This document shows positions 1,094 to 32,423 of a stretch of 64,000 bases of DNA, in pieces; position 1 is the first letter of the stretch, and each line of letters opens with the position of its first letter. The DNA is from Candidatus Eiseniibacteriota bacterium (GTDB taxonomy: Bacteria; Orphanbacterota; Orphanbacteria; Orphanbacterales; Orphanbacteraceae). The DNA lies in NCBI GenBank assembly GCA_016930695.1, contig JAFGGD010000031.1:26519-90518 (forward strand), read 5' to 3'. Below the pieces are notes generated by a model. It did no database searches, was not told where the DNA came from, and saw only the letters and a list, made by a program, of their open reading frames with translations. The position numbers were made by a program, and so were the translations under genes.

Positions 1094-2113
1094 ATGAAGG
1101 TGTTGGTCGGAATGCTGGCGTTTGTTCTTCTCCTTTCCGTATCCGGGTGCGGGGACGACGACGATTCCCCCACGGGGAACGACGCGACTCATCTGACCGC
1201 CTCGCTGATCGCGGCGCCCTCTTCCGGGACGGTGCTCACCGATTTCTCCTTCAACGCATCGGGAAGCGACGCCGGGAGCGCGTCGATCCGGTTCCGCTGG
1301 GACTGGGAAAACGACGGGGCGTGGGATACGGACTGGGCGGACGACGCCGTGGTCACGCACCGTTACGCGTCGGGGGACACGATCGCCGTCGCGGTGGAAG
1401 CCCGTGCCGGCTCCTTGCTCGACACCGCCTACGCCGTCGTCTATCTGAACGACGATCACGGCGCGCGCGTCGACTCGGTGGTCCTCCGGGACGGCGGGGC
1501 GAACGGCATGACCAACGACGGCGAGGCCCTTTGGATCACCGGATGGATGGAGGACATCTACAAGGTCGACGTCGCGCTGGGCGTCATCGTGGACACCATA
1601 GACGGTCTCTCCAATTGGACCGGCGCGATTACCTGGGACGGAGATAATCTCTGGGCGACGGACTTCGATGGCGGTCCCAAGCTGTTCGAGCGGGATCCCC
1701 TGACGGGGGAAACCTACGGCAGCTTCGACATCGCGTACAGTGCGGCCGCGGGCGGCGTCGCCTGGGACGGCGAAGCCTTTTACGTGGGAAGTGACTTGAA
1801 TTCGCTCGGGGACCGGGGGGACGGTCTCATCCATCGCTATCTGCCGGACGGGACGGAGACCGGCGCGATTCCGAGCCCCCGGGGGAGCGAACACCCTCGC
1901 GGACTCGCCTTCGACGGCGAGGATCTCTGGGTCGTGATCGTCTCCGACATAGGCGGCGCGGTGGACACCCTCTATGTGGTCGACAAGGACGACGGCACCG
2001 TGCTCCGCACTCTGTATCACCAGGGCCTCAGCGGGGACATGACGGTCATGGACGACCACGTCTGGGTCGTGACGTCGGCCTGTCCCTGCCGCGCGGTGAA
2101 GGTCGTTCCCTGA
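1094..2113 (+). CDS. Secreted lipoprotein with a PKD-like segment and beta-propeller repeats, possibly of the glutaminyl-cyclase-like/YVTN type.
   Basis: A signal peptide plus lipobox (LLLSVSGC) follows GGAGGGAG 5 nt upstream of the ATG at 1094. Repeated DGxxLW/DGxxFY blades (DGEALWITGW, DGDNLWATDF, DGEAFYVGSD, DGEDLWVVIV) and an FRWDWENDGAWD motif are present. The function is not assigned. Confidence 0.6.
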   Translation: MKVLVGMLAFVLLLSVSGCGDDDDSPTGNDATHLTASLIAAPSSGTVLTDFSFNASGSDAGSASIRFRWDWENDGAWDTDWADDAVVTHRYASGDTIAVAVEARAGSLLDTAYAVVYLNDDHGARVDSVVLRDGGANGMTNDGEALWITGWMEDIYKVDVALGVIVDTIDGLSNWTGAITWDGDNLWATDFDGGPKLFERDPLTGETYGSFDIAYSAAAGGVAWDGEAFYVGSDLNSLGDRGDGLIHRYLPDGTETGAIPSPRGSEHPRGLAFDGEDLWVVIVSDIGGAVDTLYVVDKDDGTVLRTLYHQGLSGDMTVMDDHVWVVTSACPCRAVKVVP

Positions 2114-2137
2114 TCCGTCTCTCCGAGGTGAAAAGAA

Positions 2138-2172
2138 CGCGGGGGGCGCGCGCAGGCGCCCCGCGTTTTTTC
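2138..2172 (+). terminator. Rho-independent terminator after the lipoprotein gene.
   Basis: A GC-rich imperfect hairpin gcgggggg-cgcgcgcag-gcgccccgc is followed by TTTTTT. Confidence 0.55.
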
Positions 2173-2273
2173 CCCTACACACCCTCTCCTCGAGCGCCTC
2201 ATCATTCTTCCGAAACGCCGCCGGTTGACAAGCCGGCGCGCCGCGTGCCACCCTGTCCACGAAAGGCGCGGCG

Positions 2274-3743
2274 ATGCGAAAACGTTTACATCCTCTCCTT
2301 AGACGGTTTCGTCTCATTCCCGGCGCGGCGGTAATCGCGGTCGCGGCGGTCGCGGCCGGATGCGGGGGTGCTTCCGAGGAGGCGCGCGAAAGCGTTTCCT
2401 TCTCCGCCGAACGGGCGGAGGCTTTTCTCGACACGCTCGAGGAGAGGACCTTCCTCTATTTCTGGGAGACCGCCGATCCCCGCACCGGGCTCGCGCCGGA
2501 CCGCGCCCCGACCCGTTCCTTCATGAGCACGGCCGCCACCGGTTTCGCGCTCACCGCCTACCCGATCGGCGCGGAGCGGGGATACGTCACCCGGGAGGCC
2601 GCGGCGGAACGGGTCCGCACGACACTCCACTTCTTCCTTCGAGCGCCCCGGGGGACCGATCCCTCCGCCTGCGCCGGGCACCGCGGCTTCTTCTATCATT
2701 TCCTCGACCGCGAGACGGGATGCCGTTTCGGCGAGGTGGAGCTCTCCACCGTCGACACCGCCCTCCTCCTGGCCGGCGCCCTCTTCTGCCGCGGATATTT
2801 CGACCGCGACGAGCCGGTGGAGGGGGAAATCCGGGCGGCGACGGATTCCCTCTACGCCCGCGTCGATTGGACCTGGGCGCAGCCCCGCGCGCCGATGATC
2901 GTCCACGGCTGGACGCCGGAGGCGGGCTTCCTCCCCTATGACTGGCGCGGTTACAACGAGGCGATGATTCTCTACATTCTCGCCCTCGCCTCGCCCACCC
3001 ACCCTGTCGGCGCGGACGCCTACGAGGCGTGGCTCGCCGGGTACCGCTGGGGCGAGTTCCACGGCCGCGAACAGATCGGTTTCGCTCCCCTCTTCGGCCA
3101 TCAATACACCCACGTATGGATCGACTTCCGCGGCGTCCAAGATCGTTTCACTCGTGAAAAGGGAATCGACTATTTCGAGAACTCCCGCCGCGCGGCGCTC
3201 TCCCAGAGGGATTACGCCGTCGAAAACCCGGGCGGTTGGATCGGCTACGGCGAACTCGCCTGGGGGCTCACCGCCTGCGACGGACCGGTGCATGGACAAT
3301 GGACGATCGGCGGGAGGGAGAGGCGATTCCAAACCTATTGGGCGAGGGGCGCCTCGTTCACGGAGATCCAGGACGACGGCACCCTCTGCCCGTCGGCGGC
3401 CGCCGCGTCGATCGCCTTCGCCCCCGATGTCGTCCTCCCGACCCTTCTCGCCATGCGCGCCGAGCACGGCGGCCGCCTTTTCTCCGACTACGGATTCCTA
3501 GACTCCTTCAATCCGACATTCGTCCTCGACGTGCCGGTGCAGCACGGACGCGTGCACGGCGCGAAGGGCTGGTATGACACCGACTACATCGGGATCGACC
3601 AGGGTCCGATCCTGGCGATGATCGAGAACCACAGGACCGGGTTGGTATGGAGCGTGATGCGGCGCAACCCGCACATCCTACGGGGTCTCCGGGCGGCCGG
3701 CTTCACGGGCGGGTGGTTGGACACCGCGCGGGCCGACCGATGA
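2274..3743 (+). CDS. Lipoprotein glycoside hydrolase-like protein with an (alpha/alpha)6 fold (GH144 / DUF3131-like, putative endo-beta-1,2-glucanase family); paralogue of 26471..28051.
   Basis: The lipobox is AAVAAGCGG. Motifs DTALLLAGALFCRGYF, YNEAMILYILALASPTHP and DYFENSRRAALSQRDYAVENPGGWIGYGELAWGLTACDGP are shared almost word for word with the ORF at 26471. The family assignment comes from memory of GH144-type sequences. Confidence 0.6.
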   Translation: MRKRLHPLLRRFRLIPGAAVIAVAAVAAGCGGASEEARESVSFSAERAEAFLDTLEERTFLYFWETADPRTGLAPDRAPTRSFMSTAATGFALTAYPIGAERGYVTREAAAERVRTTLHFFLRAPRGTDPSACAGHRGFFYHFLDRETGCRFGEVELSTVDTALLLAGALFCRGYFDRDEPVEGEIRAATDSLYARVDWTWAQPRAPMIVHGWTPEAGFLPYDWRGYNEAMILYILALASPTHPVGADAYEAWLAGYRWGEFHGREQIGFAPLFGHQYTHVWIDFRGVQDRFTREKGIDYFENSRRAALSQRDYAVENPGGWIGYGELAWGLTACDGPVHGQWTIGGRERRFQTYWARGASFTEIQDDGTLCPSAAAASIAFAPDVVLPTLLAMRAEHGGRLFSDYGFLDSFNPTFVLDVPVQHGRVHGAKGWYDTDYIGIDQGPILAMIENHRTGLVWSVMRRNPHILRGLRAAGFTGGWLDTARADR

Positions 3744-5092
3744 CCCGGGACGGTGACCGGCGGCGCGCCCCCGGCCGTTTCACCGCCCGAACGCTCTTCC
3801 GCTTTCTCCTTTTCCTCTCGTTCGCGGCGGCGCTCGGCGTCTCCTGCCGGGACTCGGGCGACGCCCGCCGCACCCTCCGTTTTTGGGCGATGGGGAGGGA
3901 GGGGGAGGTGGTTCAGGAGCTAATGAGCGGTTTCGAGGGGGAGAACCCGGGGCTTCACGTCGAGGTGCAGCAGATCCCCTGGTCGGCGGCTCACGAGAAG
4001 CTTCTCACCGCTCACGTCGGCCGGTCCACGCCGGACGTCGCCCAGATCGGCAACACGTGGATCGCCGAGTTCGTCGCCCTCCGCGCGCTGGAGCGGCTGG
4101 ACGAGCGCGCGGCGCGCTCCGCCGGCGTCCCGGAGGAGTCTTTCTTCCCCGGCATCTGGGACACAAACATCATCGACGGCGCGCTCTACGGAATCCCCTG
4201 GTACGTGGACACACGCGTTCTTTTCTATCGAAAGGATATCCTGGCGCGCACCGGACGGGACGCCGTTCCGGAGACGTGGGAGGAGTGGCGGGAGGCGATG
4301 ATGGAGATCAAGGCGTCCGCCGATCCCGATCATTACGCCGTCTTTCTGCCGACCAACGAGCCGACGCAGGCGGTGATCTTCGGCCTCCAGGCGGGGTCGA
4401 CCCTCCTCGCGGAAAACGGCACGCGGGGCGCTTTCTCGGGCCCCGCCTTTCGGCGCGCGTTCCGGTTCTACATCGATCTCTTCCGTGACGGTCTCGCCCC
4501 GCCGGTGAGCAACACGGAGGTGTCCAACCTCTACCGGGAATTCGCGCGCGGCTATTTCGCGATGTACATCACCGGTCCCTGGAACCTGGGTGAGTTCCGG
4601 AACCGGCTCCCGGAGGAGTTGCAGGACGAGTGGGCGGTCGCGCCCCTTCCCGGTCCGGGATCCGCCGACGCGGGGGTCTCCCTCGCCGGCGGATCGAGCC
4701 TCGTTCTTTTCCGGGAATCTCGTGAAAAGGAGGACGCCTGGCGGCTCGTGGAGTTTCTTTCCCGCCCCGAGAACCAGCTCCGTTTCTACCATCTCACCGG
4801 AGACCTGCCGGCGCGCGTCGAGGCGTGGCGGGATTCCGCCCTCGCCGGCGATCCGAGAATCAACGCTTTCGAAACGCAGCTCCGGCGGGTGGTCTCCACG
4901 CCCAAGGTTCCCGAGTGGGAGCAGATCGCCACGCGGGTGATGATGCGCGCCGAGGAGGCGATACGCGGCAGCGCGCCCCCCGACTCGGCCCTAGCGGCGC
5001 TCGACCGGGACGTGGATCGGATTCTGGAGAAGAGGCGTTGGATGATCGAACGGGAGAGGGAAACCGCGGCTTCTCCGGAGGAAGGGTCGTGA
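3740..5092 (+). CDS. Sugar ABC transporter substrate-binding lipoprotein (family 1 extracellular solute-binding protein).
   Basis: The ATG at 3740 overlaps the upstream TGA (ATGA). The signal and lipobox are FLLFLSFAAALGVSC. Typical SBP_bac_1 motifs are present (IPWSAAHEKLLTAHVGRSTPDVAQIGNTWIAEFV; WYVDTRVLFYRKD). Confidence 0.85.
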   Translation: MTRDGDRRRAPGRFTARTLFRFLLFLSFAAALGVSCRDSGDARRTLRFWAMGREGEVVQELMSGFEGENPGLHVEVQQIPWSAAHEKLLTAHVGRSTPDVAQIGNTWIAEFVALRALERLDERAARSAGVPEESFFPGIWDTNIIDGALYGIPWYVDTRVLFYRKDILARTGRDAVPETWEEWREAMMEIKASADPDHYAVFLPTNEPTQAVIFGLQAGSTLLAENGTRGAFSGPAFRRAFRFYIDLFRDGLAPPVSNTEVSNLYREFARGYFAMYITGPWNLGEFRNRLPEELQDEWAVAPLPGPGSADAGVSLAGGSSLVLFRESREKEDAWRLVEFLSRPENQLRFYHLTGDLPARVEAWRDSALAGDPRINAFETQLRRVVSTPKVPEWEQIATRVMMRAEEAIRGSAPPDSALAALDRDVDRILEKRRWMIERERETAASPEEGS

Positions 5093-6800: not shown

Positions 6801-6807
6801 AAGACCG

Positions 6808-9800
6808 ATGAAAAATGGGCTCGCCCTTTTTCTTCTCGCCGCCGTCCTCTCGATCGTTTCGTCCGCCGGCGCGGCGGACACCGTCTCGGGGACGGAGACG
6901 ATCCTTCTCGACGACTTCGCAAGCCTCGATGGATGGACCGCCCATCCCTCCGACGGGGTGGAGGCGGTTCTCCGCGAGGAGAACGGCGCGCTCCGCGTCG
7001 ATTTCCGTTTTCTCTCCGGCGCCGGCTACGCCGTCTTCCGCAAGGATTTCGCCGTCAATCTCCCGGAGAACTACGCCTTCACCTTCCGCGTGCGCGGCGA
7101 CGCGCCTCCGAACCATCTGGAGTTCAAGCTGATCGACGCGACCGGCGAGAACGTCTGGTGGTCGGTTCTCCGGGACCACGAATTTCCGAACGAGTGGGAG
7201 ACGATCCGGATCAAGAAGAGGAAGATCTCCTTCGCCTGGGGACCGGCGGGCGGGGGCGAACCGTCGGAGATCGCGGCGATCGAGTTCGCCGTCACCGCCG
7301 GGAGCGGGGGTTCGGGGACGGTCTGGATCGACGACCTCGCCCTCACGCCCCTCCCGCCGCCCAATCCGAATCCCCCCGCGCCGGTCGTCGCCGGCTGTTC
7401 GTCCTTCCGGCCGGGACATGAACCGGAGAAGGCGATCGACGGGGACGATAACACCTATTGGAGTACTGTCGAAGGCGACACCGATCATTGGATCGAATTC
7501 GATCTGGGCGTCCCCCGGGAACTCTCCGGGCTGTATGTACTGTGGCATGTTCGTCCACGTAAGATCGATATTCGGGTTTCGGATGATGGAAACGAATGGC
7601 GCCTGATACGCGATGCGAAATGGCGAACAATCTACTGCGGTGGTGTAAATTTCTATAGATTGGAATTGGTCTTTCTGCCCGAGACGGAGGCGACCAGGCT
7701 TCGATTGGATATGAAGTCTACACATCTTGGGATTAAAGAAATACGGATCCAACCGCTCGAATGGGCGGCGACGAGAAACGACATCTTCGAGAGGATCACG
7801 GAGAACTCGCCCCGGGGGATGTACCCGAGAGGGATGACCGGCGAGGCGGTCTACTGGACGACGGTCGGCGCCGACGGCGGAATCGTCAACGGATTGATCA
7901 GCGAAGACGGGGCCGTGGAGGTCGGGCCGGGATCGTTCTCCATCGAGCCGTTCCTATTCGATGATCTCTATACTACCGGTTGGGACGGATCGGAGATCAC
8001 TTATTCCCTCAAGGAGAGTCTCTTTCCTGTTCCGACGGTGACCCGACGACACCGCGACCTTCTTCTTGAAATCACCGCTTTTGCGGTGGAGAAGGAGGCG
8101 GCATCATCAATGGTCATGCATTATCGATTGAGAAACAAAAAGAGATATCCCCAAAGGGGCCAGTTCCTATTGGCTCTCCGGCCTTTCCAGGTCAATCCTC
8201 CCTATCAGTTTCTGAATGTAACCGGCGGGACGGCGAGAGTGGATTCGATCGAGAATAGCGGATCGAAGGTGCGTGTGAATGGAAGGAAATGGGTATTTTT
8301 CTTGCGAAAACCGGATGGTTCTTTTCCCGCCGTTTTCGAAAAGGGAATGAGGATCAAGATGTTTACGGAATCGCGTTGGGGTAATGGATACATTCCTTTT
8401 TGCAAAGACTGGGATTCCGTGACCGATCCCTTCGGCGCCGCGTCGGCTGTGTTCGTCTACCCCTATTATATTCCCCCCGGCGAAGAGATGCGTGTCGATT
8501 GGGTAATCCCTCTCGACGGTGAGCCGATCCTTCCGGAGGAGGAGGGAGAGGCCGCCGCCGCGGAATGGGTCGACCGGGAACTGGAGAAAGCGATCGAGAG
8601 ATGGCGGGAACGCCTCGGACCGGTGACGATCGACCTCCCCGACAAGGAGGTGGAAAACACGCTGAAGAGCCAGATCGGCTACATCCTGGTGAACCGCGCC
8701 GGTCCCGCGATCCGTCCCGGGACGCGCTCCTACGCCCGCTCCTGGATACGGGACGGGGCGCTCACCTCCTCGGCGCTCCTCCGCCTCGGGATCGACGAGC
8801 CGGCTCGGGAGTTCCTCGAATGGTTCGCGCCGCACCAGTACGAGAGCGGCAAGATCCCCTGCGTCGTCGACGACCGGGGCGCCGATCCCGTTCCGGAGCA
8901 CGACAGCTCAGGCGAGTTCCTCTTCCTGATCGCCGAGATCGTTCGCTATACGAAGGATCGCGCGCTCGCCGATGAGATGTGGCCCCGCGCCGAGGCGGCG
9001 GCGGCGTACCTCGACTCCTTGCGCGGCACGAGGCGCACCGACGAGTACCGTACGCCGGAGAAGAGACACTTCTTCGGGCTCCTTCCCCCTTCGATCAGCC
9101 ATGAAGGATACTCGGCGAAACCGATGCACTCCTACTGGGACGACTTCTGGGCGCTCCGCGGATTCCGGGACGCGGCCTACCTCGCCGGCGTCGTCGGGCG
9201 CGAGGCGGAGAGGGAACGCTGGGCCGCGGTCGCGGAGGAGTTCGCCGCCGATCTGGCCGCCTCCATCGCGGCGGCGATGGAGCACCACGGGATCGACTAC
9301 GTTCCCGGATGCGCCGACCTGGGAGATTTCGATCCCACGTCGACCACAATCGCTCTCTCTCCCGTCGGCGCCGGGGATCTCGCCCCCGAGGGGGCCATCC
9401 GCCGCACCTTCGAACGGTACGGGGAGTTCTTCGAGGAACGGCGGACCACCGGCAAGTGGGAGGCGTTCACCCCCTATGAGCTCCGGAACATCGGCGCCTT
9501 CGCCCGTCTCGGCATGCGGGGGGAGATCGCCGGGATGCTGGAGTGGTTCCTCCGTTACAGGCGGCCGCAAGGTTGGAACCACTGGGCGGAAGTGGTCTGG
9601 AAAGAGGAGAGGCTCCCCCGTTTCATCGGCGACATGCCGCACACATGGGTCGGCTCCGACTTCATCCGTTCCGTGCTCGACATGCTCGCCTTCGTCCGCG
9701 AATCGGACGGGGCGATCGTCGTGGGAGCGGGAATACCCGTCGAATGGCTGGCCGGCGAGGGGGTGAGCGTGAAGAATCTACAGACCCCCTACGGGACGAT

Positions 9801-10002: not shown

Positions 10003-10018
10003 CGGCGCCGCGAGACCT

Positions 10019-15985: not shown

Positions 15986-16112
15986 CGAAGTCTGTAACTC
16001 CTAAAACTACAGATAGTTGTGCGAAGGAGGGGGCGGCGGGCCCCTTTTCCCTCGCGCAGGGCTCTCTCGGACCCCCGCGCATGGTGCCTTTTTATTCACT
16101 TTCCATCAAGGC

Positions 16113-16157
16113 TTGACATAAGTATGTCAGATGTGCGATCATTTGTAAACGGTTACA
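16113..16157. promoter_or_regulatory. Divergent promoter region between the GH94 operon and lacI, holding a -35-like TTGACA and two operator-like palindromes.
   Basis: TTGACA is at 16113-16118. A perfect palindrome TGACATAAGTATGTCA lies at 16114-16129. A LacI/CcpA-type site TGTAAACGGTTACA lies at 16144-16157 (consensus TGNAANCGNTTNCA). All three lie in the only AT-rich stretch of a 70% GC region. Confidence 0.45.
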
Positions 16158-16252
16158 TCGAGTCGTGGGATCAGTCCGGGTGGGCCGGGATCCCAAAGAT
16201 CGAGCCTCGTCCGGCCCGAGAGATAAGATTCCCGACCTTGAGGAGCATCTCT

Positions 16253-17320: not shown

Positions 17321-17433
17321 GGACGGGGAGCCGGGCACGACGCCCGGCCATTTCTTTTCGCGTATTGCCGAACGGGGAAGGATCGATCGGTCTTCCGCTC
17401 CGGCGGGACCGGCGAAAGCAGGAGGATGGAGGA

Positions 17434-19329: not shown

Positions 19330-19418
19330 CGGGATCACCGGCGGGCGGGGGCGGAGGTCCGCCCCGCGCCCGCCGTGGAGGGAGGGGGCCGATCCCCTTC
19401 GGCGAGAACGGAGAGACG

Positions 19419-22085: not shown

Positions 22086-22090
22086 GCGAA

Positions 22091-25000
22091 GTGCGGACGG
22101 GCCTCTTCCATTCCAAGAAGACGAGGGAAAAGGGAGCCGGCCGGCGGGCGAAGCGGCTCCGCCTTCTCGGCGCCGCGGCGGCGCTGTCGCTCCTGTGCGT
22201 ATCGAAGCCGGCGGGCGAACTCCAGCCGTTGGTCTCCGCGGACGAGCGCGGCCGAGTCGACGCCGAGCGCGCGGGGCACCACGACGCGGCCGACCTCCGC
22301 ACGATCTTCTACAACTTCGGGATGGTGGGGGACTATCCGCCCGACCCGGGGAACGTGGACCTTTCCGTGTTCCACTCCGCCGAGGTTCCGAAGGGGAGCG
22401 GCATGAATTACTGCGACGGCATCACCCCCTTCGTGCTCGCCAAGATCACCCAGAGGAACGGGCTGGACGCCTACATCATGGAGACCGGGTTCCGGGAGAG
22501 GCAGGGGATCTCCCCCTACTACAACCGGGTCATGCGTTTTGAACCCAGGCCCGGCTATTTCCAGGCGGATCCGACTCTGAACCTCGCCCGCTCCCCGGCG
22601 GTGAGCCATGATCCGCGCACCTGGCCGTACCAGTGGCCGGACCGCATGGACGATCCGGACGATCCGGGCTGGTCGGGGGATTGGAACGGTTACTTCGGAA
22701 AGAGGGCGGCGGCGGACCAGGAAAGCTACACCGTCATGGACGATGACTTCTACGACGCCTGGGACTTCTACCCGGACAGCCGCGACTCGACCCGTCACGG
22801 GCTCGGGCTCCGGATCGAGGTGCGCGGTTTCCAGTGGTCCAACCCCCAGGCGAGCAACGTCATCTTCTGGCACTACGACATCACCAACGAGGGGACCACC
22901 GACTACAACGACAACATCATTTTCGGTCTCTATATGGATTCGGGCGTCGGCGGCTCGGCTCTTTCCTGCGACGGGATCTATGAGTCCGACGACGACAACG
23001 CCTACTTCGACAAGTCGTCGGGTCTCAATTTGGTTTACACCTGGGACAAATACGGACACGGCGTGGACCTCTCCGGCAAATGCGGCGACACCGGCTATCT
23101 CGGCTACGCCTATCTGGAGACCCCCGGCGCTCCGCTGGACGGGATCGACAACGACGAAGACGGCATCCTGAACGAAAGGCGGGACGGCGGCCCCGGCGAG
23201 AAGATCGTCGGCAGGGACGCCATCCGCGCGTGGACCTCCCTCTACTACGACATGGACAAGTTCGAGGAGACCTACGGCCTCCTCACGGAGCGGCCGGCTT
23301 ACAAAATCGGCGAGTGGTGGACCGGCGACGAGGACATGGACTGGAACCCGGAGTTGCACGACGTCGGCGCCGACGGCGTTCCCGAGACGGAGGACACCGG
23401 CGAAGGGGACGGCATGCCGACCGCCGGAGAGCCCTACTTCGACGAGACGGATCTGAACGAATCGGACATGATCGGTCTCACCGGGTTCAAGATGAACCGG
23501 ATCCGCGCCGGGCAGGGGAATCCGAACCCGGAGGTGGACGGCATCCTCTTCTACATGAACGACGCGCGCTGGCCCGAGCGCCTCTACGATCAGTTCACCG
23601 ATCCGAACGCGGCGGACCGCTTCGACTCGGCGCTCGCCGCGAACTACAACATCGGATTCCTCTTCGCCTCCGGACCCTTCATCCTCCGCGCCGGCCAGAC
23701 GGAGCGGTTCAGCCTCGCCCTCGCCTATGGCGCCAATCTGGGCGAACTGCGCAACACGGTGAAAACGGTCCAGCAGATCTACGACGCGAACTATCAGTTC
23801 GCCGTGCCGCCGCCGCTCCCCACGCTGACCGCGGAAACGGGCGACGGCTTCGTGCGGCTCTCCTGGGACGACCAGGCGGAGCACGGTTTCGACCCGGTCA
23901 CCTTCACCAACGATTTCGAGGGGTACAGGATCTATCGCTCCACCGATCCGGAGTTCCGCGATCCCCGGGTGATCACCACCGGGTCCGGCACCGGCCCCAT
24001 CGGCAACGGCCGGCCGATCGCACAGTTCGACGTGGCCGACTCGATCGCGGGGTATTCGAACCAGACCTGGGAAGGGGTGGCTTACTGGCTGGGGGACGAA
24101 ACGGGGATCACGCACACCTGGACCGACTCGACGGTGACCAACGGGCGGAAGTACTACTACGCGGTCACCTCCTACGATTACGGATCCGATTCGCTCGGCT
24201 TCTATCCCTCCGAAAACTCGATCAACGTCTCCCGGACCCCCCGAGGGGGCGAGATCCTGCCGCAGAACGTGGTGGCGGTCCGGCCGGAGCCGAAGGTCAC
24301 CGGGTACGTGCGGGCCGAGACGGACACGGTGGCGCACCGGGAGGGGCGCGGCTCGGGCGAGGCGGAGATCCTGGTGGTGAACTCCAACCTCGTCCCGGAC
24401 GAACACGTTTTCGAGATTCGATTCAAGACCCCCTCGGAGGACAGCCTGCGGGCCATTTCCTATTCGCTGGTCGACAGCACCGAAGGCCGGACCGTCTTCT
24501 CCCGCGGCATGGACTTGAACGGCGAGGGAACCGGACCGGTGGGGGACGGCATGCTTCCAGTGGTCCGCACGCCGGCCACCGTTTTCGTGGACAGCGCCGC
24601 CTCCGGGTTCGTCCCCGGCGGCCCGACGAACACGCGCCTGAAGATCTCCTATTTGGAGGTGCTCCCGATCAACCTGAGGCGGCCCGGCTTCCCGGACGAC
24701 CTCACCGTCACCTTCTCGGACGACGTGGTGGACACGTCGCTGGCGATCTTCCCCCTTCCGGCGAAGCCGGCCAAGTTCCGCGTGGTCGCGCGCGCCGAAG
24801 AGGGGGACGGAAATCTCGATTTCCGATTCCGCGACGTGGACGGGGACGGCACCCTGAGCGATCCGTCGGAGTACGTCGACGTGGTCACCTATTCCGACGG
24901 ACTTCCCGGAGTGCCGATGGTGACCTGGCGCGTCCAGCTCGACACGGTCGGCCAGGGGGAACGCGGAGAGATGATTCCGCCCGCCGGAGGGGACGTGTAC

Positions 25001-25405
25001 GAGGTGTTCCTGACGCGTCCCTACGGCGCGGACGACGTCTTGGCCTTCCGGACAAGCGGCGAGCGGATCGACGAGGGGAAGGAAGAGGGGGCGGAGCTCG
25101 CCCCTTACGTGGTGCCCAATCCGTACGTGGGATCCGCCTCCTTCGAAGCGGAGAGGTACGCCACCTCCGGGCGGGGCGAGCGGCGGATCGAGTTCCGCGG
25201 CCTCCCCCGGGGCAGCACGATCCGGATCTACACGGTGACGGGGGAGCTGGTGCGGACGCTCCACCACGACGGATCGGACGACGGCGCCGTGGCCTGGGAT
25301 CTGCGCACCAAGGACAACCTCGACGTCGCGCCCGGGCTGTACATCTATCACGTCGACGCGGGCCGGGTCGGCACGCACGTCGGCAAGTTCGCGATCATCA
25401 AATGA
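22091..25405 (+). CDS. Large (1104 aa) secreted Asp-rich protein with a T9SS C-terminal sorting domain. Possible PorU-like protein or surface glycan-binding protein.
   Basis: The signal is LLGAAAALSLLCVS. Thrombospondin-type-3-like acidic Ca-binding repeats are present (DGIDNDEDGILNE; DEDMDWNPELHDVGADGVPETEDTGEGDGMP). The C-terminal domain is PNPYVGSASFEAE...IRIYTVTGELVRTL...GLYIYHV. It sits immediately upstream of the PorV-like gene. Confidence 0.5.
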   Translation: MRTGLFHSKKTREKGAGRRAKRLRLLGAAAALSLLCVSKPAGELQPLVSADERGRVDAERAGHHDAADLRTIFYNFGMVGDYPPDPGNVDLSVFHSAEVPKGSGMNYCDGITPFVLAKITQRNGLDAYIMETGFRERQGISPYYNRVMRFEPRPGYFQADPTLNLARSPAVSHDPRTWPYQWPDRMDDPDDPGWSGDWNGYFGKRAAADQESYTVMDDDFYDAWDFYPDSRDSTRHGLGLRIEVRGFQWSNPQASNVIFWHYDITNEGTTDYNDNIIFGLYMDSGVGGSALSCDGIYESDDDNAYFDKSSGLNLVYTWDKYGHGVDLSGKCGDTGYLGYAYLETPGAPLDGIDNDEDGILNERRDGGPGEKIVGRDAIRAWTSLYYDMDKFEETYGLLTERPAYKIGEWWTGDEDMDWNPELHDVGADGVPETEDTGEGDGMPTAGEPYFDETDLNESDMIGLTGFKMNRIRAGQGNPNPEVDGILFYMNDARWPERLYDQFTDPNAADRFDSALAANYNIGFLFASGPFILRAGQTERFSLALAYGANLGELRNTVKTVQQIYDANYQFAVPPPLPTLTAETGDGFVRLSWDDQAEHGFDPVTFTNDFEGYRIYRSTDPEFRDPRVITTGSGTGPIGNGRPIAQFDVADSIAGYSNQTWEGVAYWLGDETGITHTWTDSTVTNGRKYYYAVTSYDYGSDSLGFYPSENSINVSRTPRGGEILPQNVVAVRPEPKVTGYVRAETDTVAHREGRGSGEAEILVVNSNLVPDEHVFEIRFKTPSEDSLRAISYSLVDSTEGRTVFSRGMDLNGEGTGPVGDGMLPVVRTPATVFVDSAASGFVPGGPTNTRLKISYLEVLPINLRRPGFPDDLTVTFSDDVVDTSLAIFPLPAKPAKFRVVARAEEGDGNLDFRFRDVDGDGTLSDPSEYVDVVTYSDGLPGVPMVTWRVQLDTVGQGERGEMIPPAGGDVYEVFLTRPYGADDVLAFRTSGERIDEGKEEGAELAPYVVPNPYVGSASFEAERYATSGRGERRIEFRGLPRGSTIRIYTVTGELVRTLHHDGSDDGAVAWDLRTKDNLDVAPGLYIYHVDAGRVGTHVGKFAIIK

Positions 25406-25419
25406 GCGGCGGAAGAAAA

Positions 25420-26430
25420 ATGCGCTTCTTTACGATCGTCATCGCGCTCCTGATCCTGGCGTCGCCGGGGTGCGTCTTCGCCCAGAGCAAGACCGGGACG
25501 GCGATCGGGCAGTTCCTGCTCATCGAGCCGAGCGCGCGCTTCGCCGCCATGGGGAACGCGGGGGTGTCCGCGGCGGAGGGGATCCAGGGCGCCTATTACA
25601 ACCCCGCCGCCGTCGGCGCCCTCGATCGCCGGGAGCTGATGTTCACGCACAGCACCTGGCTCGCGGACATTTCCTACGACTACGCCGCGCTGGCGATTCC
25701 GGTGCGGTCGCTCGGGACGTTCTTCGCGGCGGTGACGTCTCTGAACTCGGGAGAGATGGACGTGCGGACGGTCGAGCAACCGCTCGGAACGGGGGAGCGT
25801 TTCGACGCGGCGGATCTGGCGTTCGGTCTCGGTTACGGGCGGCGGATTACCGACCGCTTCGACGCGGGAGTGCAGATCAACTATGTGGACCAGCGGATCT
25901 GGCACAGTTCCCTCCGCACGGTTACGTTGAATGTGGGCACTCTCTACCGGATCACCGAGGGCGGGCTCCGCATCGGGTCGAGCCTCGTGAACTATGGAAC
26001 GAAGGCCGGGTTCGGCGGGAGGGATCTCCGCATTCAGTATGACGCCGATACCGACATCTACGGCGACAACAGCTCCCTTCCCGCGGAGCAGCACACGGAG
26101 GAGTACGCCCTCCCCGTTCTGTTCCGCGTCGGCCTTCTCTGGCCGGTCCGGACCGGGGAGGAGCATCGGTTACTCACGGCGATCGACGCCTTCCACCCCA
26201 GCGACAACACGGAGAGCGTCAGCATGGGCGCGGAATGGATCTGGAAAGAGGCGTTTTCGGCGCGTGGCGGGTATCAAGACCTTTTCCAGCAGGACGCCGA
26301 GGTCGGTTGGACCTTCGGGCTCGGCTTCCGGCAGGTGATGGAGACCTACGGGTTCGATCTGGATTACGCCTGGGCGGACCATGGAAGACTGGAGGACACG
26401 CATCGCGTCACTTTCGTGGTGCGCTTCTGA
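25420..26430 (+). CDS. porV: PorV/LptO-family outer-membrane beta-barrel (T9SS shuttle protein-like).
   Basis: The signal peptide is MRFFTIVIALLILASPGCVFAQ. The N-terminal motif FLLIEPSARFAAMGNAGVSAAEGIQGAYYNPAA matches the conserved PorV N-terminus. Alternating beta-strand periodicity runs through to a C-terminal aromatic residue (VTFVVRF). The start could be the ATG at 25402 instead. Confidence 0.6.
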   Translation: MRFFTIVIALLILASPGCVFAQSKTGTAIGQFLLIEPSARFAAMGNAGVSAAEGIQGAYYNPAAVGALDRRELMFTHSTWLADISYDYAALAIPVRSLGTFFAAVTSLNSGEMDVRTVEQPLGTGERFDAADLAFGLGYGRRITDRFDAGVQINYVDQRIWHSSLRTVTLNVGTLYRITEGGLRIGSSLVNYGTKAGFGGRDLRIQYDADTDIYGDNSSLPAEQHTEEYALPVLFRVGLLWPVRTGEEHRLLTAIDAFHPSDNTESVSMGAEWIWKEAFSARGGYQDLFQQDAEVGWTFGLGFRQVMETYGFDLDYAWADHGRLEDTHRVTFVVRF

Positions 26431-26470
26431 CGGACGCCGCGAAGGCGGTCCCGGAAGGTAGGAAACAACG

Positions 26471-28051
26471 ATGAAACGAATGAAGTGGATGGTCGGAGCG
26501 CTCCTCCTCCTGACGGTGGCCGCGGCGGACGCGCAGATCACCGATGAGGCGCTTCTGGACTCGCTCCAGAGGACCGCTTTCGATTTTTTCTGGAATGAGG
26601 CGAATCCGACCACGGGATTGATCCGGGACCGGAGCGCATCCTGGTCCCCCTGCAGCATCGCTTCCACCGGGTTCGGCCTCACGGCGATCTGCATCGGCAT
26701 CGAACACGGTTGGATCACACGCGAGCAGGGGAGGGAGAGGATCCTGGCGGCACTGCGGACCTTCTGGAACGCGCCCCAGGGGAGCGGTTCGAGCGGCTTC
26801 GCGGGCTACAAGGGGCTCTTCTATCACTTCCTGACCATGGACACCGCGGAGAGAACCTGGGACTGCGAGCTCTCCACCATCGACACGGCTCTTCTCTTCG
26901 CGGGCATTTTCGACGCGAAGGAATATTTCGACGGGACCGATTCCCTCGACGTGGAGGTTCGCTCTCTGGCCGACTCGATCACCACACGGGCGGAGTGGGA
27001 TTGGATCCACTCCGGCTGGGGGATCCGGATGGGCTGGAAGCCGGACACCGGATTCTCCGGATACGGCGACTGGATCGGCTACAACGAGGCGATGATCCTC
27101 TACATCATCGCCCTCGGATCGCCCACGCATCCGGTGCCCGCCTACTCCTGGACCGCCTGGACGAGCGGCTACGACTGGCGGACCAACTACGGCTACACCT
27201 ACGTGGAGTTCCCGCCCCTCTTCGGCCACCAGTATTCGCACTGCTGGATCGATTTCCGCTGCATCCAGGACGCCTACATGCAGTCGAAGGGGATCGATTA
27301 TTTCGAGAACTCCCGGCGCGCCACGCTCGCCCAGAGGGCGTACTGCATCGACAATCCCGGCAACCACATCGGCTACAGCGACAGCCTCTGGGGAATCACC
27401 GCGGGGGACGGTCCCTTCGGCTACACGGCCCGCGGGGCGCCCCCCGGTCAGAACGACGACGGGACGATCACCCCCTCGGCGACGGTCAGTTCACTCCCCT
27501 TCGCGCCGGAGGTGGTCATGGCGGCCACCCGCAACATGTACAATGCGTACGGTTCCCAGCTCTGGATGGAGTACGGGTTCCGGGACGGTTTTAACCTCAA
27601 CTACGCCTGGTGGGGGCCGGATGTGATCGGCATCTCCGAGGGCCCCATCCTTCTGATGATCGAGAACTACCTGAACGGTTCGGTCTGGAGCCGGTTCACG
27701 CAGAACGACGACATCCGGGCCGGTCTGGAAGCGGCGGGATTCACCGGCTGTTTCGTCGCCGTGGACGGGCCGGCGGAGGAGGAGTCGCCGACGGCGCTCC
27801 TCGCCGGGAACCGGCCCAATCCCTTCCGGGGGGAGACCACCATCTGGTTCCGCATGCCGGAGAGGGGTTCGGCGAGGCTGACGGTCTACAACGTGGCCGG
27901 GCGCGAGGTCGCCCGCCTCTTCGACGGAGAGAGGAGCGCCGGCTTCCACCAGATCGAGTGGAACGGCGCCGGGCTTCCGAGCGGCGTGTATTACTACCGC
28001 CTCCAAACGGAGACGGAGACTTTCATAAAGAGGTGCGTGCTTCTGAGGTAA
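26471..28051 (+). CDS. GH144/DUF3131-like (alpha/alpha)6 glycoside hydrolase fused to a T9SS C-terminal sorting domain; paralogue of 2274..3743.
   Basis: The signal peptide is LLLLTVAAADAQ. It shares the motifs DTALLFAGIF, YNEAMILYIIALGSPTHP and DYFENSRRATLAQRAYCIDNPGNHIGYSDSLWGITAGDGP with its paralogue. The C-terminal domain is GNRPNPFRGETTIWFRMPERGSARLTVYNVAGREV...GVYYYRL. Confidence 0.65.
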   Translation: MKRMKWMVGALLLLTVAAADAQITDEALLDSLQRTAFDFFWNEANPTTGLIRDRSASWSPCSIASTGFGLTAICIGIEHGWITREQGRERILAALRTFWNAPQGSGSSGFAGYKGLFYHFLTMDTAERTWDCELSTIDTALLFAGIFDAKEYFDGTDSLDVEVRSLADSITTRAEWDWIHSGWGIRMGWKPDTGFSGYGDWIGYNEAMILYIIALGSPTHPVPAYSWTAWTSGYDWRTNYGYTYVEFPPLFGHQYSHCWIDFRCIQDAYMQSKGIDYFENSRRATLAQRAYCIDNPGNHIGYSDSLWGITAGDGPFGYTARGAPPGQNDDGTITPSATVSSLPFAPEVVMAATRNMYNAYGSQLWMEYGFRDGFNLNYAWWGPDVIGISEGPILLMIENYLNGSVWSRFTQNDDIRAGLEAAGFTGCFVAVDGPAEEESPTALLAGNRPNPFRGETTIWFRMPERGSARLTVYNVAGREVARLFDGERSAGFHQIEWNGAGLPSGVYYYRLQTETETFIKRCVLLR

Positions 28052-28171
28052 GAGACAAACGAAGCGAGAGAGACGACCTATGTGCGAACCGGTCCGGAGG
28101 CGAGGAGGTGAGTGGACCGGCCGGTAGGATGACGGAGAGAGAAACCTGAAACCGAGAAAAGGAGAACGACA

Positions 28172-28969
28172 ATGAAACGTAAGGGTAACGGAGCTTGGAC
28201 GGCGCTTCTGGTCGTCGTCGCGGTGGCTTTCGCGGCGACCCAGGCGGCGGCGACGCCGGCCGTCAACTCGGTCGTGTTCCATCTGAACATCTGGGAAGAC
28301 TGCCTCACGCACACGGTCTCCACCGTGAACAACTACCCGTCGCAGGTCTGCATCAACGACGATTGGACCTGCACGTCCGGGTACGCCGATCTGCACAACT
28401 GGCACCTCTCCGATGACGGAGTCGCGGGCGCCGTGTTCAACAACGGCGACGGCTTCCGTCTGAAAGCGGAGCTGGTGATCAGCGGAACGGGGAACGCCGA
28501 GGCGGGCCTGATGGTCGCTCCCTGGTGGGCCCAGAACACGGACGGGCGTTTCAACGTCCGGACCACGGACGGCGAGATCGCCTGCTTCGGCGGCCGCCTC
28601 CCCTTCTATTCCTTCACGGTGAACCACGGCATCAGCTACGTGAAGGGTGACGCGATCATCCTCGAGGTGATCTACCTTCCCAACGGTCTCTCGGTTACGA
28701 ATCCGGCGACCATCACCTACAACCTCACCTACAACAGCGTGGACTACACCAGCGGCCCCATCGCGTTCGACGAGGGGAACCCGGCGGAGCCTTACGGCAC
28801 CTGGGGAATGCTGGACAACGCCCGCGTCGGTGGGTACGTGCAGGAACTCCTCGGCGGCGCCGTGGGCCAGGTGCTGACGACCTGGTGCAGCTTCGAGTTC
28901 GAGGACCTCGGCGGTCCGACCGCGACCGAGGCGACCAGCTGGGGTGACGTGAAGACCCTCTTCCGGTAG
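28172..28969 (+). CDS. Secreted hypothetical protein (265 aa) with no recognisable family.
   Basis: AAGGAGAACGACA-ATG is a strong RBS. The signal peptide is ALLVVVAVAFAATQAAA. A clean terminator follows. The GC content is slightly lower than in the neighbouring genes. Confidence 0.55.
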   Translation: MKRKGNGAWTALLVVVAVAFAATQAAATPAVNSVVFHLNIWEDCLTHTVSTVNNYPSQVCINDDWTCTSGYADLHNWHLSDDGVAGAVFNNGDGFRLKAELVISGTGNAEAGLMVAPWWAQNTDGRFNVRTTDGEIACFGGRLPFYSFTVNHGISYVKGDAIILEVIYLPNGLSVTNPATITYNLTYNSVDYTSGPIAFDEGNPAEPYGTWGMLDNARVGGYVQELLGGAVGQVLTTWCSFEFEDLGGPTATEATSWGDVKTLFR

Positions 28970-32419: not shown

Positions 32420-32423
32420 GTCT

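Follow-up and report, generated by a model that had tools for sequence, protein, structure and literature searches.

A probable beta-1,2-glucan utilization locus in Candidatus Eisenbacteria with an outer-membrane trio that seems to stand in for SusC/SusD

Which glycan is degraded by a bacterial sugar locus that pairs a TonB-dependent transporter (TBDT) with T9SS-anchored surface proteins, and what takes the place of the SusC/SusD pair in its outer membrane? A first-pass annotation had read the locus studied here as one for beta-1,2-glucan with such an architecture. We called genes by third-position GC in the window, i.e., the whole analyzed stretch of 64,000 nucleotides, and annotated them with Pfam and NCBIfam; every gene listed in the first-pass annotation was present. 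The host is Candidatus Eisenbacteria, so the locus lies outside Bacteroidota, as had been proposed for its architecture. Homology and synteny, on which both the substrate and the uptake mechanism rest, support the beta-1,2-glucan interpretation and make it probable that this is a LacI-repressed catabolic beta-1,2-glucan locus, its outer-membrane trio being a modular SusC/SusD-like cassette.

The conserved locus spans positions 2274-28969 and has terminators at both ends. A terminator-like GC hairpin with a T-run (2143..2172, + strand; GGGGCGCGCGCAGGCGCCCC, then GCGTTTTTT) marks the left boundary, 3' of an unrelated lipoprotein gene, and a strong intrinsic-terminator-like hairpin of 13 pairs with a T-tail (28992..29021, + strand) marks the right one. 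Of the stretch originally delimited (1094-28969), the right end stood, but the locus starts at 2274: the first ORF (1088-2113) is the lipoprotein gene beyond the hairpin, which had no Pfam or NCBIfam match and no counterpart in any of the syntenic loci. Start and stop codons overlap between the genes for GH144a and the binding protein (ATGA), the two permeases, GH1 and the esterase, and the 1104-aa protein and the PorV-like barrel (ATGA). The last gene (28172..28969, + strand), a recurrent accessory gene, encodes a secreted 265-aa protein that has no Pfam or NCBIfam match, with relatives of 41 to 50% identity in loci L007, L083, L084, and L086.

A LacI-family repressor with LacI HTH and Peripla_BP_3 domains (Pfam) is encoded at 16253..17320 (+ strand), a gene position kept in the syntenic loci. 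Divergent promoter-like hexamers and a LacI-type palindrome, TGTAAACGGTTACA at 16144-16157, lie between the GH94 and LacI genes (16113..16157), while the palindrome CGAAAACGTTTACA, a candidate operator, overlaps the start of GH144a (2277..2290). The 64 kb window holds no further site of this kind (counting both strands gives four matches), against an expected number of 0.05. Other phyla retain the palindrome next to LacI in their beta-1,2-type loci; in the same comparison, it was absent from paralogous cassettes. The overlapping codons, the terminators, the restriction of the palindromes to two promoter regions, and synteny indicate that 2274-28969 is one unit. We found the same gene set in the same order in an Eisenbacteria relative (56 to 83% identity), Krumholzibacteria, Calditrichaeota, and many metagenome contigs; because loci from other phyla share it, the clustering is not due to chance.

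Both GH144-like (alpha/alpha)6 enzymes that had been proposed were confirmed as such, with best matches in GH144 and in no unrelated family. GH144a (2274..3743, + strand; PF10091, 8.6e-79) is a predicted periplasmic, lipoprotein-anchored endo-beta-1,2-glucanase, having a lipoprotein-type signal with a lipobox-like ...VAAGC. Its best PDB match is XcSGL (8xul, E 1.4e-163), whose residues E239, F286, and Y367 are conserved as E229, F274, and Y355. GH144b (26471..28051, + strand; PF10091 1.9e-78, Por_Secre_tail) is predicted to act at the cell surface as an endo-beta-1,2-glucanase; it carries both a signal peptide and a T9SS type A sorting domain (TIGR04183, 34.3 bits, above cut-off). XcSGL (XCC2207) is again the best solved relative (E 1.8e-118), and E206, F251, and Y318 align with its key residues. 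XcSGL is a glucanase biochemically specific for beta-1,2-glucan (PMC12102758). The GH144 and GH94 families both include uncharacterized members.

The 1295-aa GH94 protein (12098..15985, - strand) contains two supersandwich stretches (PF06165) and a catalytic domain (PF17167). It had been described as a two-N-domain phosphorylase of SOGP-like size; the domain layout stood, but by its sequence the protein is of the cyclic-glucan-synthase (Cgs) C-terminal type, not of the SOGP type. It matches residues 1541-2779 of Cgs (8rf9) with an E value of 1.2e-259, compared with 1e-76 for cellobiose phosphorylases, and does not group with cellobiose, cellodextrin, or chitobiose phosphorylases; SOGP was not retrieved with it as a query at E<=1e-3. 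The catalytic Asp of the Cgs DWND motif, D2528 (PMC11842490), is conserved in the window protein. No characterized stand-alone Cgs-type GH94 was found in the literature examined. The adjacent gene (10720..12120, - strand; Glyco_hydro_1, 1.6e-146) encodes a cytoplasmic GH1 beta-glucosidase in which a signal peptide is absent, conserved in L001, L002, L005, L007, L083, and L087.

As annotated at first, a sugar ABC importer is present (3740-6800), consisting of a binding protein and two permeases. The SBP_bac_1 solute-binding protein (3740..5092, + strand) is a predicted sophoro-oligosaccharide binder. Among solved structures its best relative is 3uor (1e-134), which we take to be a Xanthomonas protein, followed by the sophoro-oligosaccharide binder Lin1841 (5ysb, 1e-73), with the next match at 1e-40. 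The permeases (5089-5982 and 5979-6800, + strand; BPD_transp_1 in both) share 64 to 83% identity with those of syntenic loci. Two further secreted proteins are encoded between the importer and the GH1 gene. The SGNH/GDSL esterase (10019..10723, - strand; Lipase_GDSL_2, 8.9e-17) is predicted to de-acylate substituted beta-1,2-glucans; an esterase-type domain of 46% identity is fused to GH144 in the Calditrichaeota loci L081 and L082. The 1064-aa protein (6808..10002, + strand) comprises a CBM11-like jelly roll, a CBM32/discoidin domain, a beta-supersandwich, an (alpha/alpha)6 barrel, and a C-terminal beta-sandwich, and is a candidate for an uncharacterized GH15/GH65-fold glycosidase. Its nearest folds, GH15 and GH65, are those of enzymes acting on alpha-glucosides.

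Could the locus instead serve to degrade a different kind of beta-glucan, or a glycan, mixed or decorated, in which beta-1,2 linkages are a minor share? GH1 is a generic enzyme, an esterase is encoded, the 1064-aa enzyme combines CBM32-/CBM11-like modules with a fold typical for alpha-glucoside hydrolases, and the length of GH94 varies from 800 to 1315 aa across locus versions, all of which would fit such a substrate. We nevertheless consider it unlikely, since the closest characterized relatives of the two GH144 enzymes, GH94, and the binding protein independently indicate beta-1,2-glucan, and beta-1,2-glucan and its oligosaccharides are the only substrates of the GH144 members characterized in the literature examined. 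The GH144-SGNH fusions of L081 and L082 also count for a beta-1,2-linked substrate, as do an IaSGT-type GH35 gene in the related locus L086 and the matching components of the published Ignavibacterium album cluster.

The outer-membrane genes follow the LacI gene. A surface protein with a CBM9-like domain (17434..19329, + strand; CBM9_1 30.5 bits, cut-off 23.4), a predicted glycan binder, ends in a T9SS type A sorting domain (Por_Secre_tail; TIGR04183 39.3 bits, cut-off 23). It and GH144b are thus the two proteins with such domains above cut-off, in agreement with the T9SS-anchored surface proteins first proposed; no core T9SS genes were found within the 64 kb window. The CBM9-like gene lies directly 5' of the TBDT gene, an arrangement conserved in syntenic loci. 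The TBDT (19419..22085, + strand) has Pfam barrel and plug domains and a CarboxypepD_reg N-terminal domain. Assignment to the SusC family was rejected, as the TBDT scores 34.9 bits with the SusC/RagA model (TIGR04056) against a cut-off of 368, and SusD was absent from the locus and from every annotated context of related loci and cassettes; the claim that there is no SusC/SusD pair therefore held.

Between the TBDT gene and that of a PorV-like barrel lies the gene for a 1104-aa surface protein (22091..25405, + strand), by this position a predicted TBDT partner. It has no Pfam match. Its N-terminal ~670 residues are highly conserved and are followed by variable Fn3/Ig-like domains and a CTD-like C terminus, which falls below the T9SS type A cut-off and whose last 70 residues are weakly similar to the PorZ CTD (NCBIfam). 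Three Asp-rich motifs are the sole basis for putative Ca binding. An AF2 model gave weak matches to PorZ and PorU. Since the conserved N-terminal half has a pLDDT below 50 in that model and no PDB relative was detected for it, a binding role is a guess from position. Homologs number at least 1531 at 65 to 78% identity, and at E<=1e-30 the family falls into 881 clusters of 50% identity. The barrel (25402..26430, + strand), initially named PorV, does belong to the PorV/PorQ family (NF033709, 180.8 bits; cut-off 90) but is not PorV proper: it falls below the NCBIfam equivalog cut-offs for PorV, PorQ, and PorV2 and is a locus-specific paralog. Its sole PDB match is F. johnsoniae PorV (3.3e-6).

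The three genes travel together. Among loci with enough flank, collected by similarity searches rather than by an unbiased census, the ~1100-aa gene is preceded by a TBDT gene in 33/33 and followed by a PorV-like gene in 31/31. Paralogs of 30 to 40% identity, specifically 33 to 38%, form the same cassette beside GH130/GH5, sulfatase/SASA esterase, or another (alpha/alpha)6 enzyme, and one paralogous cassette was verified in a Rhodothermaceae genome (L088). The trio is not tied to one substrate: related phyla have it as a modular cassette alongside other sets of enzymes. A PPIase/SurA-like gene lies 3' of the trio in some paralogous cassettes. We found no earlier description of the TBDT/~1100-aa/PorV-like triad in the literature. 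The trio apparently takes the place that the SusC/SusD pair has in Bacteroidota, and we infer a role in uptake.

A different role, as an export or surface-display device in which an Oar-type TBDT aids the secretion of its neighbors and the ~1100-aa protein is an enzyme or adhesin, is distinctly unlikely. It would accord with the Myxococcus TBDT Oar, stated to be needed for secretion of the PopC protease (PMC6434023), with the function of Bacteroidota PorV-family proteins as secretion shuttles, PorV being the sole PDB relative of the trio barrel, and with the PPIase/SurA-like gene after some trios. However, the trio recurs, for several substrates, in LacI-controlled loci that also encode ABC importers and glycoside phosphorylases or hydrolases of the cytoplasm, a context that is an uptake signature, and the plug and barrel domains of the TBDT are those of ordinary TonB-dependent importers. 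A role of the locus in remodeling or recycling periplasmic beta-1,2-glucans made by the cell itself is very improbable: the homology of GH94 to the length-controlling domain of biosynthetic Cgs and the predicted periplasmic location of GH144a would fit, but Pfam revealed neither a GT84/GT2 synthase nor a cyclase domain in the locus, the surface GH144, surface CBM protein, and TBDT favor an external substrate, and a LacI repressor with an ABC importer is typical of catabolic loci.

From homology and predicted localization, we propose that uptake and catabolism of external beta-1,2-glucan proceed as follows. The substrate may be linear, cyclic, or osmoregulated-periplasmic-glucan-type beta-1,2-glucan released by other bacteria, captured and nicked at the surface by the CBM9-like binder and T9SS-delivered GH144b. 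Fragments would cross the outer membrane through the TBDT working with the ~1100-aa protein, which is probably held at the surface, via its CTD-like domain, by the adjoining PorV/PorQ-like barrel. In the periplasm, lipoprotein GH144a, the SGNH esterase (by acyl removal), and the GH15-fold 1064-aa enzyme may trim the chains. The ABC importer, with its Lin1841-like binding protein, would bring sophoro-oligosaccharides into the cytoplasm, where GH94, homologous to the length-controlling domain of Cgs, may release glucose-1-phosphate and the GH1 beta-glucosidase would complete degradation.

A similar parts list, in a host that likewise is not a member of Bacteroidota, has been described for the SGL cluster of Ignavibacterium album (IALB_1177-1187) (Kobayashi et al. 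2022, PMC8861115). The model given there includes a surface glucanase, a TBDT, a periplasmic GH144, an ABC importer, and a cytoplasmic GH94; the GH35 glucosyltransferase alone was characterized, and the authors marked TBDT uptake as speculative. The published precedent with a TBDT makes the enzymology of the window locus less novel, and it is the outer-membrane trio that is less expected. The portions of that description available to us do not mention T9SS, a PorV-like gene, or an ~1100-aa partner. Unlike the I. album cluster, the window locus lacks GH35 and carries GH1, an SGNH esterase, and the GH15-fold protein of 1064 aa.

In the SOGP operons of Listeria innocua (Lin1838-1841) and Lachnoclostridium phytofermentans, as in the window, a GH94 phosphorylase and a beta-glucosidase are encoded together with a LacI-type regulator and an ABC importer whose binding protein is for sophoro-oligosaccharides. 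Their phosphorylase, however, is SOGP in place of a Cgs-type GH94, and their Gram-positive hosts have neither an outer-membrane module nor GH144. Xanthomonas, the source of the closest characterized relative of both window GH144 proteins (XcSGL, XCC2207), reportedly takes up glycans through TBDTs without SusD in its TBDT-containing carbohydrate utilization (CUT) loci (Blanvillain et al. 2007). Proteobacterial CUT loci are not known to have T9SS sorting domains, a PorV-like gene, or an ~1100-aa partner. The PorZ-PorQ and PorU-PorV attachment pairs of the Porphyromonas gingivalis T9SS resemble the window pair in joining a large, CTD-retaining surface protein to a PorV/PorQ-family barrel. Unlike the window-type pair, which has many paralogs and sits next to a TBDT within substrate-specific sugar loci, each of those pairs is part of the general apparatus for secretion and occurs a single time in a genome.

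A published table for the Rhodothermus marinus xylan locus Rmar_1067-1081 gives the series LacI, GH43-CBM6, CBM4-CBM4-GH10, TonB-dependent receptor, and two hypothetical proteins; Por sorting domains are listed for both enzymes and for the first of the hypothetical proteins (PMC6987092). This order is that of the window cassette, although the xylan locus also contains a canonical SusC/SusD pair and the two hypothetical proteins were left uninterpreted. As a lead drawn from the table description only, Rmar_1071 and Rmar_1072 may belong to the ~1100-aa and PorV-like families.

Compared with Bacteroidota PULs, the window locus has no SusD homolog and a TBDT that fails the SusC/RagA model; the TBDT is followed not by an all-helical lipoprotein but by a beta-rich protein of ~1100 aa whose end is CTD-like; the module includes a PorV/PorQ-family barrel; surface anchoring is predicted to be by T9SS instead of by lipoproteins; and an ABC importer serves inner-membrane uptake. 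What the two share is a substrate-specific set of a co-localized regulator, surface binders and enzymes, a CarboxypepD_reg-type TBDT, and periplasmic and cytoplasmic enzymes, as well as the reuse of one outer-membrane module beside different enzyme sets.

A candidate β-1,2-glucan utilization locus was proposed in the first-pass annotation at 1094 to 28969 of the window; our analysis places it at 2274 to 28969 and supports this interpretation with the type of its GH94 phosphorylase corrected. Two of its products, of 1064 and 1104 aa, are 100% identical to NCBI entries from a “Candidatus Eisenbacteria” metagenome-assembled genome, a lineage that NCBI places in the candidate phylum Eiseniibacteriota. 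The window has a GC content of ~65%, and its raw list of open reading frames (ORFs) is crowded by spurious frames; the gene map was made from ORFs filtered by third-position GC and then scanned with Pfam and NCBIfam, and it confirmed the gene set first proposed. Three units make up the locus. Unit 1, on the plus strand, encodes the first GH144 protein (GH144a; 2274 to 3743), an ABC binding protein (3740 to 5092), two ABC permeases (5089 to 6800), and a secreted 1064-aa discoidin-domain protein (6808 to 10002). Unit 2, on the minus strand and convergent on unit 1, encodes GH94 (15985 to 12098), a GH1 enzyme (12120 to 10720), and an SGNH esterase (10723 to 10019). Unit 3, on the plus strand and divergent from GH94, encodes LacI (16253 to 17320), a CBM9-like protein with a T9SS sorting domain (17434 to 19329), a TonB-dependent transporter (TBDT; 19419 to 22085), a 1104-aa protein that starts five bases 3′ of the TBDT (22091 to 25405), a PorV/PorQ-family barrel whose gene has an ATGA overlap with the preceding one (25402 to 26430), the second GH144 protein with a T9SS sorting domain (GH144b; 26471 to 28051), and a secreted 265-aa protein (28172 to 28969). 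Several adjacent genes overlap by ATGA or GTGA.

Left of the locus lie an aconitase-family fragment and then an unrelated plus-strand gene (1088 to 2113) for a 341-aa lipoprotein (signal ending in LSVSGC). This ORF was originally taken as the start of the locus and falls outside it: it is followed by a terminator-like element (a GC-rich hairpin and T-run at ~2143 to 2172), has no Pfam or NCBIfam match, and has no counterpart in any of the syntenic loci compared. On the right, a terminator with a 13-bp stem (28992 to 29021) marks the end of the locus, since the genes beyond it are methylmalonyl-CoA mutase genes and a cell-division/murein cluster. These housekeeping genes, in 31298 to 37138 (minus strand) and 41211 to 48583 (plus strand), include MeaB, two methylmalonyl-CoA mutase subunits, and mraW-murE-murF-mraY. 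Just outside the closing terminator, a minus-strand gene (29041 to 30795) encodes a 584-aa polytopic membrane protein with a PMT_2 (dolichyl-phosphate-mannose-type glycosyltransferase) domain, which is probably unrelated to the sugar locus; a 666-aa protein with a sulfatase domain and C-terminal TPR repeats (38489 to 40489, minus strand) is likewise unrelated. The 265-aa protein, which ends in TSWGDVKTLFR, has relatives of 41 to 50% identity in four of the comparison loci fetched by similarity (L007, L083, L084, and L086), and in L083 the resembling stretch is part of a longer protein of 818 aa that has a T9SS sorting domain. An Rfam scan of the whole 64-kb window gave no family match.

The two GH144 proteins were annotated correctly. 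Both are full-length matches to the PF10091 catalytic domain (8.6e-79 for GH144a and 1.9e-78 for GH144b), their best solved relative is XcSGL (XCC2207, PDB 8xul; E = 1.4e-163 and 1.8e-118), and the founding enzyme CpSGL (5gzh) matches them with E values of 4.7e-50 and 5.3e-54. XcSGL cleaves β-1,2-glucan and none of the other glucans assayed, with E239, F286, and Y367 as key residues (PMC12102758). These residues, which comprise the acid catalyst and substrate site, are kept in GH144a as E229, F274, and Y355, in an alignment to a solved XcSGL chain whose aligned position has the E239Q mutation; the GH144b equivalents, aligned via GH144a, are E206, F251, and Y318. Judged by homology, GH144a and GH144b are members of the GH144 endo-β-1,2-glucanase family, with a predicted specificity for β-1,2-glucan.

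The GH94 protein (1295 aa) had been read as an oligoglucan phosphorylase with a size like that of 1,2-β-oligoglucan phosphorylase (SOGP) and proved instead to be of the cyclic glucan synthase (Cgs) type. PF06165 is found in two stretches and PF17167 is covered from position 2 to 420 of 420. Residues 24 to 1243 align with residues 1541 to 2779 of Cgs (8rf9; E = 1.2e-259), so that the full phosphorylase (GP) region is matched. In Cgs, this C-terminal half begins at residue 1536, contains a Rossmann-like (RFL) insert at 1847 to 2012, and shortens β-1,2 chains by phosphorolysis (PMC10901819). The catalytic aspartate of the Cgs DWND motif, D2528 (PMC11842490), is kept: GTGDWNDGMNRVG of the window protein aligns with GGDWNDGMNRVG of Cgs. 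Cgs ranked first among the PDB matches, then cellobiose and chitobiose phosphorylases, which reach at most 262 bits over the C-terminal 785 residues; no SOGP chain appears among the matches at E ≤ 1e-3, which comprise 19 PDB sequences.

Among solved proteins, 3uor is closest to the ABC binding protein (1e-134), and second is Lin1841 (1e-73), which binds sophoro-oligosaccharides in Listeria; the next match is at 1e-40. The GH144 pair, GH94, the binding protein, and the comparative context each independently indicate β-1,2-glucan, and this predicted substrate is strong for a computational call; set against these concordant indications, a locus devoted to another or a mixed glycan seems improbable. 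In two Calditrichaeota loci, the esterase and GH144 are fused as one 661-aa protein (L081, 17068 to 19053; L082, 7203 to 9188), and this GH144-SGNH/GDSL esterase fusion suggests that the natural substrate of these loci is an acylated (e.g., succinylated) β-1,2-glucan. A related GH144/GH94 locus, L086, contains a GH35 gene with a GLMA_2nd domain (17266 to 19635). IaSGT of Ignavibacterium album, characterized as a β-1,2-glucosyltransferase, is also a GH35 protein with its gene in a GH144/GH94 cluster (PMC8861115).

The family of the 1064-aa protein has at least 1602 members of ~1060 residues, annotated solely as discoidin-domain or hypothetical proteins. An AlphaFold model made with 50 homologues (pLDDT 88, pTM 0.89) displayed the β-supersandwich and (α/α)6 architecture of GH15/GH65-type enzymes. 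The GH15-like label it first received thus holds for the fold and fails for sequence-family membership: there is no GH15 Pfam match, TIGR01577 scores 20.3 bits against a cutoff of 820.7, and the PDB sequence matches are to CBM32 only. The family has several invariant acidic residues and an invariant WIRDG stretch, which is reminiscent of the WxRD substrate-binding motif of glucoamylases. In every sampled context, including contigs of Gemmatimonadota and Methylococcales, the gene adjoins GH94 or GH144 genes. We read its product as a predicted periplasmic glycosidase of a new family, acting on some feature of natural β-1,2-glucans; our search of open-access papers for a GH15-like β-1,2-glucan enzyme, weak evidence at best, found none. 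The gene also stands beside a stand-alone Cgs-type GH94 in L003 (Methylococcales), L011, L031, L040, L058 (Gemmatimonadota), and L060. Since no TBDT, ~1100-aa protein, and PorV-like barrel were detected together in the fetched flanks of these six loci, some of them short, the 1064-aa gene and GH94 form a pair that travels separately from the uptake cassette.

A scan with GH94, one genome per species, retrieved 449 relatives from many phyla. The whole locus is syntenic on a “Candidatus Eisenbacteria” contig (L005), where twelve genes have 56 to 83% identity, and whole-locus synteny was also found in two uncultured bins (L001 and L007) and a Krumholzibacteriia metagenome-assembled genome (L002). 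Further contexts were taken from close homologues of the 1104-aa protein (L081, L083, L084, and L085) and homologues of the 1064-aa protein (L086 and L087). Shared among these are LacI, a CBM-bearing protein with a T9SS sorting domain, TBDT, the ~1100-aa protein, and the PorV-like barrel, together with a sorting-domain GH144, a second GH144 lacking that domain, GH94, GH1 or GH3, and an ABC importer. GH94 occurs there in a long, Cgs-like form of 1185 to 1315 aa (the window, L083, and L087) and a short form of 800 to 820 aa with 35 to 39% identity to the window protein (L081, L085, and L086).

The palindrome TGTAAACG(N)TTACA, with TGTAAACGGTTACA as the candidate LacI operator sequence, was found twice in the 64-kb window versus 0.05 expected, once at the start of GH144a and once in the divergent GH94/LacI region. 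The latter site overlaps two σ70-like hexamer pairs, the only ones detected in the stretch from 15 to 31 kb; as the promoter scan gave 2 sites versus 1.7 in shuffled sequence and hence no excess, only their position is informative. In β-1,2-type loci of other lineages, the palindrome adjoins the LacI gene (background, 0.18 per 10 kb), and it is absent from the paralogous cassettes compared. This is good comparative evidence for a predicted single LacI-controlled regulon. By gene map, operator sites, and synteny, the CAZymes, binders, and transporter are thus co-localized and predicted to be co-regulated for one glycan, as is expected of a PUL.

The transporter comprises CarboxypepD_reg, plug, and barrel domains. 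Its match to the SusC/RagA model TIGR04056 is confined to the N-terminal 125 residues (34.9 bits; cutoff, 368), placing it outside the SusC family, and Pfam and NCBIfam gave no SusD match among the locus proteins. The TBDT therefore lacks a SusD partner here, as the first reading had it, and SusD is also absent from eight annotated related contexts. The accompanying claim of T9SS-anchored surface proteins stood for two of them, the CBM9-like protein (39.3 bits) and GH144b (34.3 bits), which exceed the cutoff of 23 for the type A sorting domain (TIGR04183). For the 1104-aa protein, the one C-terminal match is a weak one to the PorZ CTD (E = 1.3e-4), although the NCBI name of a homologue with 69% identity (P0148) is that of a T9SS type A sorting domain protein. 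The protein annotated as PorV is a member of the PorV/PorQ family (NF033709; 180.8 bits; cutoff, 90) and falls short of PorV proper (61.8 versus 250), as it does of PorQ (87.8 versus 220) and PorV2 (44.2 versus 325). Its sole solved relative in the PDB is PorV (6h3i_F). No core T9SS gene (SprA/Sov, PorK-N, or PorU) was found within the 64-kb window.

The 1104-aa protein has no Pfam domain and exceeds every enzyme of the locus in conservation, with relatives of 65 to 78% identity across lineages labeled Eisenbacteria, Gemmatimonadetes, and Calditrichaeota. Conservation extends over residues 50 to 720 and the last 100, with a variable region at 720 to 1000. In an AF2 model, the C-terminal half consists of Fn3/Ig-like sandwiches with a CTD-like domain at the end; the model is poor over residues 38 to 530 and does not resolve the conserved N-terminal half. 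A profile search of the PDB gave no match, and Foldseek returned only generic Fn3/Ig arrays and weak PorZ and PorU matches. A housekeeping role in the T9SS was considered in view of the high identity across phyla and was rejected because orthologues go with GH144/GH94 loci, whereas the paralogues go with sugar loci of other kinds.

The family profile matched 881 clusters (50% identity) at E ≤ 1e-30, a number that rose to 3315 at E ≤ 1e-10, and full-length members typically share 30 to 42% identity. GH144 and GH94 accompany only orthologues of at least 54% identity. In a Rhodothermaceae genome (L088; CP020382) and a Marinimicrobia contig, a paralogue with 34% identity to the window protein is found in the order LacI, CTD protein, TBDT, paralogue, PorV-like protein, and ABC importer, with a mannan-type enzyme set (GH130, plus a GH5-family enzyme in the Marinimicrobia locus). 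The trio also recurs in paralogue groups from metagenomes, where its neighbors are variously a sulfatase together with a SASA esterase and oxidoreductases; sorting-domain proteins of the CBM4_9 type; or an ABC importer and a different (α/α)6 enzyme. Among 41 fetched loci, a biased census in that they were found by similarity, from several orthologous groups and phyla, a same-strand TBDT lies directly upstream of the family member in all 33 with enough flank, and a PorV-like gene directly downstream in all 31 that allow the check. Several paralogous cassettes also have a PPIase/SurA-like (rotamase) gene after the PorV-like or ABC genes (L090, 11788 to 13482; L092, 14557 to 16434; L101, 16411 to 17955), a hint that the outer-membrane module has its own chaperone.

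We propose, with slightly less than even confidence, that the trio is a general, undescribed outer-membrane complex for glycan capture and import, in which a T9SS-delivered protein on a dedicated PorV-like barrel takes the place of SusD, with hundreds of paralogous versions for different glycans, and that the 1064-aa protein is a new GH family tied to β-1,2-glucan metabolism. The proposed range of the trio, just as tentative, would be Eisenbacteria, Krumholzibacteria, Calditrichaeota, Gemmatimonadetes, Marinimicrobia/Fidelibacterota, Rhodothermia, and Balneolaceae, i.e., candidate or minor phyla related to Bacteroidota. The chance that the trio represents a new type of outer-membrane complex is a real one. 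Literature searches limited to open-access papers, and hence weak evidence, found neither a description of the trio nor a paper on T9SS in Eisenbacteria or Krumholzibacteriota.

The sequence data establish the gene content, the homology to characterized β-1,2-glucan enzymes and the conservation of their catalytic residues, the signal peptides and sorting domains, the tight operons, and the conserved synteny and operator. The following uptake mechanism is plausible. The polymer would be captured and cut at the surface by GH144b and the CBM9-like protein, and the fragments would enter through the TBDT, aided by the ~1100-aa protein, whose CTD-like end may let the PorV-like barrel keep it at the surface, on the model of PorZ-PorQ and PorU-PorV. 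That the trio serves secretion rather than import is quite unlikely in our judgment, the barrel's relation to PorV and the PPIase/SurA-like genes lying on one side and the trio's place in LacI-controlled sugar loci with ABC importers on the other. Under the import model, GH144a, the esterase, and the 1064-aa enzyme would act in the periplasm, sophoro-oligosaccharides would be taken up by the ABC system, and GH94 and GH1 would finish the breakdown. Recycling of the cell's own glucan, a reading to which the Cgs-type GH94 might be fitted and with which the sorting domains of GH144b and the CBM9-like protein sit poorly, has little chance of being correct.

β-1,2-Glucans are symbiosis, virulence, and osmoprotection factors in many Proteobacteria, and their consumers in soils and sediments are largely unknown. 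This type of locus is widespread, with >1500 close homologues of the signature protein in public data, and it points to candidate consumers among uncultured phyla. Its candidate enzymes include a stand-alone Cgs-type GH94, an esterase sometimes fused to GH144, and a family of GH15 fold that was invariably found in the company of GH144 and GH94. Because PULs are currently found via the SusC/SusD pair, glycan loci outside Bacteroidota are systematically missed; the trio, conserved and simple to recognize, would supply a second search key for them, as well as the hypothesis that SusD can be replaced by a T9SS-anchored partner.

The enzymology of the locus is of an already-known kind, with the SGL cluster of I. 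album as a precedent: that cluster is a close parallel and likewise combines a TBDT with a Cgs-type GH94 (PMC8861115). Since Melioribacter (PMC3534657), CBM-bearing enzymes with T9SS sorting domains have been known from outside Bacteroidota, and according to a review the T9SS is present throughout the Fibrobacteres-Chlorobi-Bacteroidetes superphylum (PMC11205867). For the xylan locus of Rhodothermus marinus, a published table shows what is apparently the same gene order, a likeness by gene order alone, with the two partners listed as “hypothetical protein”; the candidate counterparts of the trio are Rmar_1070 to Rmar_1072. We class the locus as a SusD-less PUL grammar, a variant of a known theme.
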